The notes under the pieces were generated by a model, which was not told the origin of the DNA, did not search any database, and worked only from the letters and a program-made list of their open reading frames with translations. A stretch of DNA of 32,000 bases from Nanopusillaceae archaeon (GTDB lineage Archaea > Nanobdellota > Nanobdellia > Nanobdellales > Nanobdellaceae): positions 35,080-67,079 of the forward strand of contig JBMFJD010000004.1 in NCBI GenBank assembly GCA_049974095.1. Reading direction: 5' to 3'. A program made the translations under genes and the position numbers. This document shows, piece after piece, positions 16,392-18,435 of the stretch. Every line of letters starts with the position of its first letter. The first letter of the stretch is position 1.

Positions 16392-16402
16392 ATAATGTTT
16401 GT

Positions 16403-16452
16403 ATGATGAAGGATCAACGATCTGAGGAGATGATGAATGATGGGCAAACTGA
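16403..16452 (+). ncRNA. C/D box sRNA (2'-O-methylation guide)
   Basis: C box ATGATGA (16403-16409), 12-nt guide AGGATCAACGAT, D' box CTGA (16422-16425), 4-nt GGAG, C' box ATGATGA (16430-16436), 12-nt guide ATGATGGGCAAA, D box CTGA (16449-16452). Box order and the 12-nt spacers are exactly the archaeal architecture. Confidence 0.8.
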
Positions 16453-16960
16453 GATATATACGCTAGGTCATTCTAATAGAAATATAGAGGAATTCTTGGA
16501 GATATTAAAAAAGAAAGATATAGATATTGTTATAGATGTAAGATTAATACCTGGATCAAATAAATATCCACAATATAACAAAGAAAATTTAGAAAAATAC
16601 TTAAATAATAATAATATTGAATATTTACATTTAAAGGAGCTTGGAGGATTTAGAAAACCTTTAAAAGATTCTAAAAATATATGGTGGAGAAATAAAAGTT
16701 TTAGAGGATTTGCAGATTATATACAAAGGACAGAATTTAAAGATGTAATAAAAAAATTGATAGAAATTGCAAAAAATAAGAAAGTAGTAATAATTTGCTC
16801 TGAGAAAAATCCTTATAGATGCCATAGAAGAATAATATCTGACTATTTATCATTAATATATAATGTTAAAGTAATACATATAATTGATAAAAATAGAGAA
16901 GAAGAACATAAAGTTACTAAATCTACAAAAATAATCAATAATGATATTATTTATCAATAA
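16430..16960 (+). CDS. DUF488-family protein
   Basis: EIYTLGHSNRNIEEFLEILKKKDIDIVIDVRLIPGS...ENLEKYLNNNNIEYLHLKELGG and a later CSEKNPYRCHRR match DUF488. The ORF opens at 16403. Family members usually start just before the IYTxGHS motif, so the ATG at 16430 or 16433 (inside the C' box) is preferred. Confidence 0.7.
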   Translation: MMNDGQTEIYTLGHSNRNIEEFLEILKKKDIDIVIDVRLIPGSNKYPQYNKENLEKYLNNNNIEYLHLKELGGFRKPLKDSKNIWWRNKSFRGFADYIQRTEFKDVIKKLIEIAKNKKVVIICSEKNPYRCHRRIISDYLSLIYNVKVIHIIDKNREEEHKVTKSTKIINNDIIYQ

Positions 16961-16961
16961 T

Positions 16962-17390
16962 TTAGTGGGCGGCTTCCGTGCTTTCCCGGCCTTCGCCAGT
17001 ACTCACACAGACGTGGGCCGGCTTAACTTCCGTGTTCGAAATGGGTACGGGTGTTTCCCGGCCACTTTGGCCGCCCTTGATTTTATCATTTCCATGAACC
17101 TTTTTTAAATCTTTTCTTATATTGAATCTCTTAACATATCCACAATATAAACATTTATATATAATTCTTCCTCTTCTTATCCTTATTTGTAATGTTTTAC
17201 CGACAATCCATGGAGTATAACATCTTTTACAAAATTTATTTCTTAAATTTTTTGGCAATCTAATTCTAGCTTTATTTTTTATTTTCCATAAAATATAAAT
17301 ATATCTTCTAGATAATTCTAAATTATCAATATTTTCTATTGCTTTCTTATATAAATATTCTATTCTCTTTATTGCTGTTTTTTTATACAT
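16962..17390 (-). CDS. rnp4: RNase P protein component 4 (Rpp21/Rpr2). The ORF has no stop before the 5S gene and runs through it
   Basis: AIKRIEYLYKKAIEN...LSRRYIYILWKIKNKARIRLPKNLRNKFCKRCYTPWIVGKTLQIRI...YKCLYCGYVKRF is the Rpp21 helical arm plus zinc ribbon. The conserved domain ends near nt 17120. Residues ~105-142 (KGGQSGRETPVPISNTEVKPAHVCVSTGEGRESTEAAH) are a translation of the 5S rRNA gene. Confidence 0.75.
   Translation of the reverse strand: MYKKTAIKRIEYLYKKAIENIDNLELSRRYIYILWKIKNKARIRLPKNLRNKFCKRCYTPWIVGKTLQIRIRRGRIIYKCLYCGYVKRFNIRKDLKKVHGNDKIKGGQSGRETPVPISNTEVKPAHVCVSTGEGRESTEAAH
16965..17076 (-). rRNA. 5S ribosomal RNA (isolated, not linked to 16S/23S in this window)
   Basis: The reverse complement reads GGGCGGCCAAAGUGGCCGGGAAACACCCGUACCCAUUUCGAACACGGAAGUUAAGCCGGCCCACGUCUGUGUGAGUACUGGCGAAGGCCGGGAAAGCACGGAAGCCGCCCAC. 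It contains the conserved ACACCCGxACCCAUUUCGAACxCGGAAGUUAAGCC core. Helix I pairs GGGCGGC with GCCGCCC. Ends are accurate to within a few nt. Confidence 0.93.
17102..17109 (-). promoter_or_regulatory. 5S rRNA promoter: TATA box TTTAAAAA preceded by the purine-rich BRE-like AAGAAAAGA, embedded in the rnp4 coding sequence
   Basis: The minus strand reads AAGAAAAGATTTAAAAAAGG. The TATA centre lies about 29 nt upstream of the 5S 5' end at 17076. Confidence 0.45.
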
Positions 17391-17733
17391 ATATTTTTAC
17401 TTCCTTTTCTTCATTTTTATCAATATTTTTTACATATAATAAAATATAATCATCTTGACTTGCATTTACTTTTGGTATTAAAACTTCTATATTTTGTTTT
17501 CTATATTTATCAATTGAAATAACAATTGGAGAAATTAAATTATAATATAATCTAAATTTTAAGGCAATATATTGATCTTTAAAATATATATACTTCGTTC
17601 CTATTTCAAATTTCCTTATATATGGAGAATGATTCTTAATTGTTAATATAACTTTCTTTGAGTATTTCAAATTATCAACATCTGTAGATATATTTACTTC
17701 TACATCCCATCTATCTTCCAATTCTTCCATCAT
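17383..17733 (-). CDS. Hypothetical protein (116 aa)
   Basis: The ORF overlaps pth2 (4 nt) and rnp4 (8 nt) in the same orientation. Its composition looks beta-rich. I recognise no family. Confidence 0.45.
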   Translation of the reverse strand: MMEELEDRWDVEVNISTDVDNLKYSKKVILTIKNHSPYIRKFEIGTKYIYFKDQYIALKFRLYYNLISPIVISIDKYRKQNIEVLIPKVNASQDDYILLYVKNIDKNEEKEVKIYV

Positions 17734-18083
17734 AATAATTTTAATGTTCCTGTTATTTTATCAATCTTATCTTCATAATCTGGGCCTATACCTATGCATG
17801 TTATAGTACCTGGTTCTAATTGAGTTAAACCAGCATCCTTTATTAATACAGTATTTAATCCTTCATTTTTTGCTTTATTATATATATCCATTAATTTTTC
17901 TAAATTTTCTACATAAACAACAACCTTCTTGGCTCCTTCTTCTCTCCATTTTTCTACAATTTCTTTATTTTTATTTAATTGCTCTAATACACACTCAACT
18001 GCAGCATGGGCTACTTGAACACACAACTTTCCTTTTCCAATATCTAAATCTTTTCTAACTACAACTACTAATTTATAAACCAT
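17730..18083 (-). CDS. pth2: Peptidyl-tRNA hydrolase, archaeal type (Pth2)
   Basis: KLVVVVRKDLDIGKGKLCVQVAHAAV...KKVVVYV...LIKDAGLTQLEPGTITCIGIGP. Confidence 0.9.
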   Translation of the reverse strand: MVYKLVVVVRKDLDIGKGKLCVQVAHAAVECVLEQLNKNKEIVEKWREEGAKKVVVYVENLEKLMDIYNKAKNEGLNTVLIKDAGLTQLEPGTITCIGIGPDYEDKIDKITGTLKLL

Positions 18084-18435
18084 CTAATCCTTTTAATTTT
18101 TCTAATAAAAACTTTAATTTATAATTATCTAGTTTTTCATTTATTATTTCTTCATCTAATTTTTTATATAAGTCATCTAATTTTTTATTTATTTCATTTA
18201 GAACAGAATATATATTCTTTATTTCATTTTCTAAATTATTATATTTATTTTCAATCATATTTATTCTTTCGTCTCTTTTTTTATCTAATTCTTGAATATT
18301 TAAAATTTCACTTTTCATTTTATTTGTTTCCTCTTTTACATCATCTACATATTTCTTTAAATTTTCTAATATCTCTTCATATTTATCAAAGTCCAATAAC
18401 CTATTAATAATTTTATCATAACCTAAATCATCCAT
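18073..18435 (-). CDS. Hypothetical coiled-coil protein (120 aa)
   Basis: Heptad-like K/E/N/L-rich sequence. It is the first gene of the pth2-rnp4 string, with a TTTATTAA centred about 26 nt upstream of the ATG. Confidence 0.45.
   Translation of the reverse strand: MDDLGYDKIINRLLDFDKYEEILENLKKYVDDVKEETNKMKSEILNIQELDKKRDERINMIENKYNNLENEIKNIYSVLNEINKKLDDLYKKLDEEIINEKLDNYKLKFLLEKLKGLDGL

Follow-up and report, generated by a model that had tools for sequence, protein, structure and literature searches.

Probable loss of the rnp4 stop codon before a 5S rRNA gene in a Nanopusillaceae archaeon

In this study, we analyzed the gene for the ribonuclease P (RNase P) protein Rpp21 (rnp4) and the 5S ribosomal RNA (rRNA) gene that follows it in a tiny Nanopusillaceae archaeon of hot springs (GCA_049974095.1, contig JBMFJD010000004.1, positions 35,080-67,079 of the forward strand). 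This whole stretch of 32,000 nt, which has ∼23% G+C and contains G+C-rich RNA genes, is referred to below as the window. As an earlier note made from the sequence alone had claimed, rnp4 has no stop codon before 5S, and its open reading frame (ORF) crosses the entire same-strand 5S gene, with the Rfam match inside the ORF. The most plausible explanation, to which we assign a probability of about 0.7, is a lineage-specific loss of the stop codon at an extremely compact junction, that is, a tolerated and non-adaptive accident and not an evolved protein-rRNA fusion. The loss is probably neutral or slightly deleterious, and nothing points to a new molecular mechanism. No description of the rnp4-5S junction was found in the literature searched (on the junction, on Nanopusillus RNase P, and the YN1 and Nanobdella papers), and the same searches on organisms with this junction (YN1, Nanobdella and Nanopusillus) found no transcriptome.

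Stop codons and the 5S promoter at the rnp4-5S junction

The elements of the junction are listed below; A2 is a MAFFT alignment of the rnp4-5S junction, and BRE stands for B recognition element.

16962-17390 (-): rnp4 ORF, 142 amino acids, ending ...KIKGGQSGRETPVPISNTEVKPAHVCVSTGEGRESTEAAH*
17112-17390 (-): conserved core of rnp4, residues 1-93, with two N-terminal helices and a zinc ribbon, ending ...KRFxIRK
17111-17117 (-): BRE-like, purine-rich AGAAAAG
17110-17111 (-): site of a 1-nt insertion (G17111 or A17110), at column 40 of alignment A2, between AGAAAA and [AG]TTTAAAA
17101-17109 (-): putative TATA box (box A) of 5S, TTTAAAAAA, at -31 to -23 relative to Rfam 5S position 1
17079-17100 (-): 22-nt spacer between box and 5S, residues V98-I104, stop-free in the shifted frame
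16964-17078 (-): 5S rRNA gene, Rfam RF00001, 75.9 bits (gathering cut-off 38), model positions 1-120
16962-16964 (-): TAA, the first in-frame stop, whose T is the last Rfam 5S position
16927-16931 (-): first run of five T (T5), candidate terminator shared by the operon and 5S transcripts, antisense within the convergent DUF488 gene

The 5S gene lies wholly inside the rnp4 ORF on the same strand and occupies codons 105-142, codon 105 beginning exactly at 17078. All elements that the earlier note had listed were recovered within 2 nt of its coordinates (5S, for example, at 17078-16964 by Rfam and at 17076-16965 in the note), and its placement of the first stop, TAA at 16964-16962, at the 3′ end of 5S was confirmed.

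The comparison drew on 48 related loci, some retrieved by exact-protein look-up and others taken from single genomes representing each species or from JGI metagenomes. The junction could be compared in ∼40 syntenic loci (Nanopusillus, Nanobdella, YN1 and metagenomes), and 26 distinct junction sequences were distinguished. All nine database homologs of the protein, from Nanobdella aerobiophila, Nanopusillus, Nanoclepta, the cultured strain YN1 and metagenomes, are 92-106 amino acids long and end in RK[VI] or RKNLKNI. The gene order is conserved (coiled-coil ORF, pth2, an ORF of no assigned function, rnp4, 5S, DUF488 in some loci, rps17 and rpl14), and 5S stands right after rnp4 on the same strand in all loci of the Nanopusillus, Nanobdella and YN1 types. 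In ∼35 loci, rnp4 ends at a TAA inside the gTT-TAA-AAA of TTTAAAAAA, 28-29 nt upstream of 5S. In Nanobdella this motif encodes L-K, with a tandem TGA-TAA serving as stop at a distance of 16 nt from 5S; two further loci stop at TAG at -15, one at -37 and one frameshifted contig at -11, which gives a full range of 11-37 nt upstream of 5S. Only two junctions of about 26 are in the stop-loss state: that of the window, shared with L001 (a Logan contig from SRR25937769, a hot-spring metagenome of Uzon Caldera, Kamchatka), and that of L006 (Nanopusillaceae metagenome-assembled genome (MAG) KM4331-16, 3.8x coverage). The L006 ORF has 150 amino acids and continues for eight codons past 5S, where it encodes unrelated sequence.

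The alignment of the junction indicated how the stop was lost. A base is present at column 40 in the window, L001, L006 and Nanobdella, and a gap stands there in L002 (an ENA contig), YN1, N. acidilobi and Nst1. With the inserted base, TTTAAAAAA stands in codon phase 3 instead of phase 2, and the TAA is no longer read because the box has been moved out of phase; in the window the box is translated as D-L-K-K. The window junction reads AAAAGATTT, with AAAAGTTT or AAAAATTT as the alternatives, so that the inserted base has a GA context and, compared with L002, does not simply lengthen a homopolymer. L002 and YN1 are the nearest relatives of the window, with identities over concatenated flanking proteins of 83.5% (four of the six proteins) and 82.5%, respectively, as compared with 72.5% for L006. 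A neighbor-joining tree of the six concatenated flanking proteins (692 columns) placed the window as sister to YN1 with a bootstrap value of 0.965, and L006 and Nanobdella appeared as separate deep branches. On the basis of these sequence comparisons, the insertion is placed in the window lineage after its split from YN1-like relatives, and the stop-loss state is derived and recent. Since the window is sister to the stop-bearing YN1 and L006 belongs to a separate deep branch, two independent stop losses appear to have occurred. A common origin of the two read-throughs was also considered and rejected, as the window and L006 paired in only 3% of bootstraps.

These data bear on what the earlier note had read into the locus. 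The involvement of an RNA-processing enzyme subunit, which it had implied to be meaningful, was not supported. The overlap goes back to a derived 1-nt insertion, and relatives stop 11-37 nt before 5S. It had also suggested that related genomes with a clean stop and an intergenic spacer would indicate a strain-specific accident. The first part stood, as the nearest relatives (YN1 and L002) and ∼35 other loci do have a stop; the second did not, as there is no clean spacer and the stop sits inside the 5S TATA box. In a second lineage, L006, the stop was lost independently.

Once the insertion is given, read-through to the end of 5S is expected and needs no further explanation because frame 0 of 5S is open. 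No internal stop occurs in this frame in any of 15 related genomes, and the only frame-0 stop of the Nanopusillus clade is a TAG across the 5′ boundary of 5S, where the window, YN1, L002 and L006 have AAG. The remaining two frames of the window 5S each carry a stop, which leaves frame 0 as the sole open one of the three. Syntenic 5S genes of relatives share 89-97% identity with that of the window and score 66-81 bits.

We also examined the region upstream of 5S, where the earlier note had placed a promoter inside the coding sequence. The sequence AAGAAAAGATTTAAAAA is located at 17118-17102. In 25 of the 26 distinct junctions, a [TC]TTA[AT]AA box begins 29-31 nt before the first Rfam position of 5S, which agrees with RNA-seq data for N. 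equitans, where a box A of TTTAAA is found 26-27 nt upstream of transcription starts (PMC3491384). Counted from where the 9-nt box ends, the spacing to the GGGCGGCC core within 5S is 24, 24, 24 and 22 nt in the window, L002, YN1 and Nanobdella, respectively. Regions upstream of the three tRNA genes of the window were too AT-rich for a distinct box to be read. A location of the predicted 5S promoter inside the rnp4 coding sequence is supported well by conservation, as is the sharing of the last rnp4 codons with the box across the whole family. With regard to termination, T-stretch terminators have been described in nanoarchaea (PMC3491384). Between 18107 and 16931, the gene strand lacks any stretch of at least five T, and the first one after rnp4 lies 33 nt past 5S; operon transcripts probably run through 5S.

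The Rpp21 core and the 5S-encoded tail

The conserved part of the protein was examined for signs of decay. PF04032 (Rpr2) matched residues 9-84 with 58.7 bits (Pfam cut-off 29.3), and the NCBIfam model for ribonuclease P protein component 4 (PRK03954) aligned to residues 3-97 with 61.9 bits, which is under its whole-protein cut-off of 162. The same residues align to solved Rpp21 structures, with 1x0t, 2k3r and 6k0a as relatives in the PDB. In the Rpp21 protein alignment (A1), the zinc-ribbon cysteines C54, C57, C80 and C83 are invariant, and all 36 invariant columns are kept in the window protein. An AlphaFold2 model built on this alignment showed helices at residues 2-19 and 24-41 and three strands, with a predicted local distance difference test (pLDDT) score above 90 for residues 1-95. 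The ratio of nonsynonymous to synonymous substitution rates (dN/dS) for the 93-codon core was 0.04-0.15 in all pairwise comparisons of the window, L002, YN1 and L006, a value that averages the time before and after the stop loss. The core is identical in the window and L001. Taken together, the core is under purifying selection, and rnp4 is a bona fide Rpp21/Rpr2 gene and not a pseudogene.

The tail presents a different picture. Its 38 residues (105-142 of the ORF) are those that the earlier note had derived from 5S, and peptides of a translated tail would include ETPVPISNTEVKPAHVCVSTGEGR and the C-terminal ESTEAAH. Residues 96-142 have pLDDT below 50 and are predicted to be disordered. The G+C content at third codon positions is 0.63 in the tail versus 0.11-0.12 in the core and in a reference set of 9,417 codons; 20 of the 38 tail codons are used fewer than two times per 1,000 in the genome, and CGG occurs twice in the tail versus not once in the reference set. 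A 41-residue query (DKI plus the 38-residue tail) had no match in an index of 5.8 billion proteins, which is weak evidence since the search of this index also failed to return the query's own protein. In terms of composition and predicted structure, the tail looks like 5S sequence that happens to be open and lacks the appearance of an evolved coding sequence. The C-terminal extension is plausibly harmless because canonical Rpp21 proteins already carry additional residues at this end: solved Rpp21 structures run 6-19 residues past the position equivalent to residue 97.

Proposed course of events and alternative explanations

On the basis of the above results, we propose the following course of events. 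The ancestral rnp4 stop would have been the TAA embedded in the 5S TATA box TTTAAAAAA. Insertion of one purine just 5′ of the box (17110/17111) would have put this TAA out of frame, and the new frame, being stop-free through the 22-nt spacer and 5S, would end at the TAA that begins on the last 5S base. The 5S transcript would be driven by a promoter of its own within the ORF, start at or near the mature 5′ end and lack the rnp4 start codon, whereas Rpp21 would be made from a longer operon mRNA, on which the first T5 run comes only 33 nt past 5S. Translation of the longer mRNA might either add a disordered and functionless 38-residue tail or stall within the 5S part, with its structure and rare codons. 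In both cases, the Rpp21 core (residues 1-93) would remain intact, and the extension would be tolerated.

It should be noted that several points weigh against this interpretation. First, Nanobdella and L006 share the extra base with the window, which makes the ancestral state of the family ambiguous; the polarity in the window is unaffected by this ambiguity because its two nearest relatives lack the base. Second, the extra base of L006 lies in an A6 run of a 3.8x MAG, and the second case may be an assembly error. Third, the stop was lost in two lineages with read-through in one and the same frame, which might point to selection and not to a mutational bias of A-runs. Fourth, the averaging in pairwise dN/dS means that the period after the stop loss is not seen separately. 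Finally, we infer promoter use, transcript extents, read-through transcription and the fate of translation, including that of the tail, from sequence.

Among the alternatives, the best surviving one, which we consider possible but unlikely, concerns the fate of the long transcript. It holds that cleavage at the 5′ end of 5S by the machinery that matures 5S would turn the operon transcript into a non-stop mRNA, and that ribosomes reaching its 3′ end would be rescued by aPelota/ABCE1 and yield an Rpp21 of ∼104 amino acids without the tail. With no T5 terminator between rnp4 and 5S, read-through transcripts that contain a complete 5S are likely; a product of ∼104 residues would resemble the natural 106-residue protein of Nanobdella, and the codons of the tail are almost unused in the genome. 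However, a 5S transcript that begins at a promoter-defined 5′ end would need no 5′ processing, and coupled transcription and translation would put ribosomes on the 5S segment before it folds. This alternative differs from the stop-loss interpretation solely in the fate of the long transcript.

It is highly doubtful that the read-through is used, that is, that translation of rnp4 into 5S, or recoding on the A-rich box, ties the production of this RNase P subunit to the transcription or maturation of 5S, with recurrence as a sign of selection. Were read-through to occur even without a function, archaeal ribosomes would routinely enter folded rRNA sequence during translation or arrive at an end without a stop, and ribosome rescue and transcription-translation coupling would become testable in a minimal cell. 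An adaptive overlap as such, in which the tail or translation through 5S is functional, for example by tying the production of Rpp21 to transcription or assembly of 5S, and is maintained by selection, is very improbable. Read-through did arise twice in distant lineages in the same frame, and two strains of the window's lineage share it, but it is absent from the two nearest relatives and ∼35 other loci. The shared frame is forced and not informative, since 5S has a single open frame; the tail is dictated by 5S, predicted to be disordered and composed of avoided codons, and that of L006 continues for eight codons into unrelated sequence.

We consider it more improbable still that recoding brings back a stop before 5S, be it by ribosomal frameshifting or by slippage of transcription at the A-rich box. 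A -1 shift at the in-frame A_AAA_AAG (17106-17100) would yield ...DLKKGSWK*, and the -1 frame of the spacer closes with a tandem TGA-TAA (17088-17083), 5 nt before 5S. L006 has A_AAA_AAT in frame. These two heptamers are those of E. coli dnaX and Sulfolobus fucA1. However, in-frame A_AAA_AAN is common in this Lys-rich genome, with 62 occurrences in 9,705 codons of the window, or ∼0.9 per 142-codon ORF by expectation, so that its presence lends no weight, and the heptamer is present here as the TATA box itself. Frameshift stimulators usually lie 5-9 nt downstream, whereas the nearest stable hairpin, which is also the first G+C hairpin of the 5S segment (17073-17059), lies 27 nt downstream; its position was taken from a bacterial-type sigma-70/terminator scan that is otherwise irrelevant to archaea. 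Moreover, the six-A run is short for transcriptional slippage, alternative frames stop within a few codons in AT-rich DNA (stop triplets at 7-8% of positions), and relatives terminate normally without any shift.

A sequencing or assembly artefact, in which a spurious indel accounts for the extra base and the real genome has an in-frame TAA, is among the least probable explanations. A single-base indel adjoining homopolymer runs, like the extra base in the A6 run of the 3.8x L006 assembly, is what such an error would look like, but the GA context of AAAAGATTT is not a homopolymer extension relative to L002. It is unlikely for the window because L001, an independent and non-identical assembly, has the same junction, and assembly error, which the earlier note had wished to exclude by resequencing, was rejected for the window on this evidence. 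The two sequences are 99.74% identical over 2,271 aligned bases (five mismatches and one gap), and the junction, the 142-residue ORF and 5S are identical. Equally remote is early pseudogenization of rnp4 as part of RNase P decay in Nanoarchaeota, which would fit the degenerate or lost RNase P of relatives (PMC3655853, PMC4919917) and the fact that stop loss can be a first lesion, but which we rejected on the dN/dS of 0.04-0.15, with the four Zn ligands and 36 invariant columns intact, the core identical in two strains and a confident model for residues 1-95.

Comparable systems and neighbouring genes

Overlaps of stable RNA genes with same-strand ORFs are known in compact archaeal genomes from C/D box small RNAs (sRNAs) (PMC6009581, PMC3491384). 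In 23 Pyrobaculum cases, the C box RUGAUGA supplies the stop of the upstream gene (PMC6009581), and other overlaps include start codons inside the C′ box (PMC6009581, PMC3491384). The C box thus gives a neighbouring gene its stop, much as the 5S TATA box gives rnp4 its stop in relatives. In contrast, the ∼55-nt guide overlaps only partially, whereas here a complete 115-nt 5S gene lies inside the 3′ end of an ORF; and the sRNA overlaps are conserved among orthologs, whereas overlap with the body of 5S is limited to the window/L001 and L006, the promoter overlap being the only one conserved at rnp4-5S loci. The swallowing of 5S by stop loss is therefore of the same general kind as archaeal signal sharing, and the inclusion of an entire 5S and the lack of conservation set it apart.

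Stop-codon loss in reduced symbiont genomes is similar in that a single-base indel at the 3′ end extends the ORF to the next chance stop, with the core under purifying selection and the extension disordered and unselected. Unlike ordinary stop loss, the extension here crosses an rRNA gene that is functional and highly expressed, together with its promoter, so that the added part of the mRNA doubles as an independent transcription unit and as a structured RNA. In Halobacterium intraRNAs, a promoter inside a coding sequence also drives a nested same-strand transcript, but these often encode alternative protein isoforms (PMC6161675), whereas the nested transcript here would be rRNA. Across the whole family, the 3′ end of rnp4 and the promoter of 5S would be a single sequence under double constraint, which shows the extent of gene packing, and a single slipped base is enough to remove the stop and let the ORF take in a whole rRNA gene, with at least two occurrences. 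Peptides encoded inside rRNA genes include the mitochondrial humanin and MOTS-c and a pentapeptide of E. coli 23S rRNA; they likewise reflect sense-strand coding potential in rRNA, but they are short independent ORFs and not an upstream gene reading through, and nothing points to a function of the peptide at the present locus. For annotation, the 142- and 150-residue 'Rpp21' proteins carry 5S-derived tails and not a new domain, and should be flagged. Should the organism become available in culture or in samples, the locus would also offer a natural experiment on archaeal ribosomes in a structured, rare-codon and possibly stop-less 3′ region, and on an internal promoter under read-through.

Upstream of rnp4, overlapping gene ends in the ORF list suggest an operon with the following members.

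17383-18435 (-): likely upstream operon feeding rnp4
18073-18435 (-): coiled-coil ORF, 120 amino acids
17730-18083 (-): pth2, with a Pfam PTH2 match
17383-17733 (-): conserved ORF, 116 amino acids, with no Pfam or NCBIfam match

The order of the coiled-coil ORF, pth2 and the 116-residue ORF upstream of rnp4 is the same in YN1, Nanobdella and L006. Together with pth2 and rnp4, the two conserved ORFs of 116 and 120 residues form a likely nanoarchaeal operon. On the other side, rnp4-5S stands directly upstream of rps17, a position that in other archaea is held by rnp1 (Rpp29). Neither Rpp29 nor RNase P RNA was found within the 32-kb window (the latter by Rfam scan). The relative Nst1 is reported to have RPP21, RPP29 and RPP30 together with a shortened RPR, and RNase P has been wholly lost in N. 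equitans (PMC3655853, PMC4919917).

A C/D box sRNA at 16400-16456 (+), 500 nt from the rnp4-5S junction, forms the first ∼17 codons of the DUF488 ORF (16403-16960 (+)), whose product begins MMKDQRSEEMMNDGQTE followed by IYTLGHS. The layout of the sRNA is tgt-ATGATGA-aggatcaacgat-CTGA-ggag-ATGATGA-atgatgggcaaa-CTGA. Translation of DUF488 probably begins instead at the ATG within the C′ box, which belongs to a documented overlap class (PMC6009581). The same arrangement of sRNA and DUF488 occurs in Nanobdella (L004 8917-8860, minus strand), and the sRNA stands alone between 5S and rps17 in L002, YN1 and L006. The window and Nanobdella carry the convergent DUF488 gene in the interval from 5S to rps17, but L002, YN1 and L006 lack it, the last of which retains only its first few bases after the sRNA. 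In L001, only an 86-residue DUF488 fragment was called (L001 803-1063), and the single gap between the window and L001 may lie in this gene. The DUF488 stop (16958-16960) is 1 nt from the stop of the rnp4-5S ORF, and the candidate T5 run (16931-16927) lies antisense inside DUF488.

Some further variation was observed around 5S and the rnp4 3′ end. A search by eye for a processing stem flanking 5S yielded only a 7-nt AATGATA/TATCATT complement in the window that is absent from L006 and was taken as chance. In Nanoclepta minutus and two MAGs, 5S abuts rnp4 on the opposite strand, 0-12 nt after the stop (L020 3277-3391 (-); L021 and L022 3289-3403 (-)). The adjacency of rnp4 and 5S therefore appears to be older than the same-strand arrangement, with 5S inverted in one lineage. 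Finally, the metagenome locus L025 (JGI20129J51890_10054942, ∼1530-1575) has a small deletion in the last strand of the zinc ribbon (taatagggaaaagattt versus taatagggtaaaaagattt) and, owing to the shifted frame, a C-terminus of EKIYNKKSLKNIHF* whose stop lies 11 nt from 5S, which is either another lesion at this fragile 3′ end or a sequencing error.

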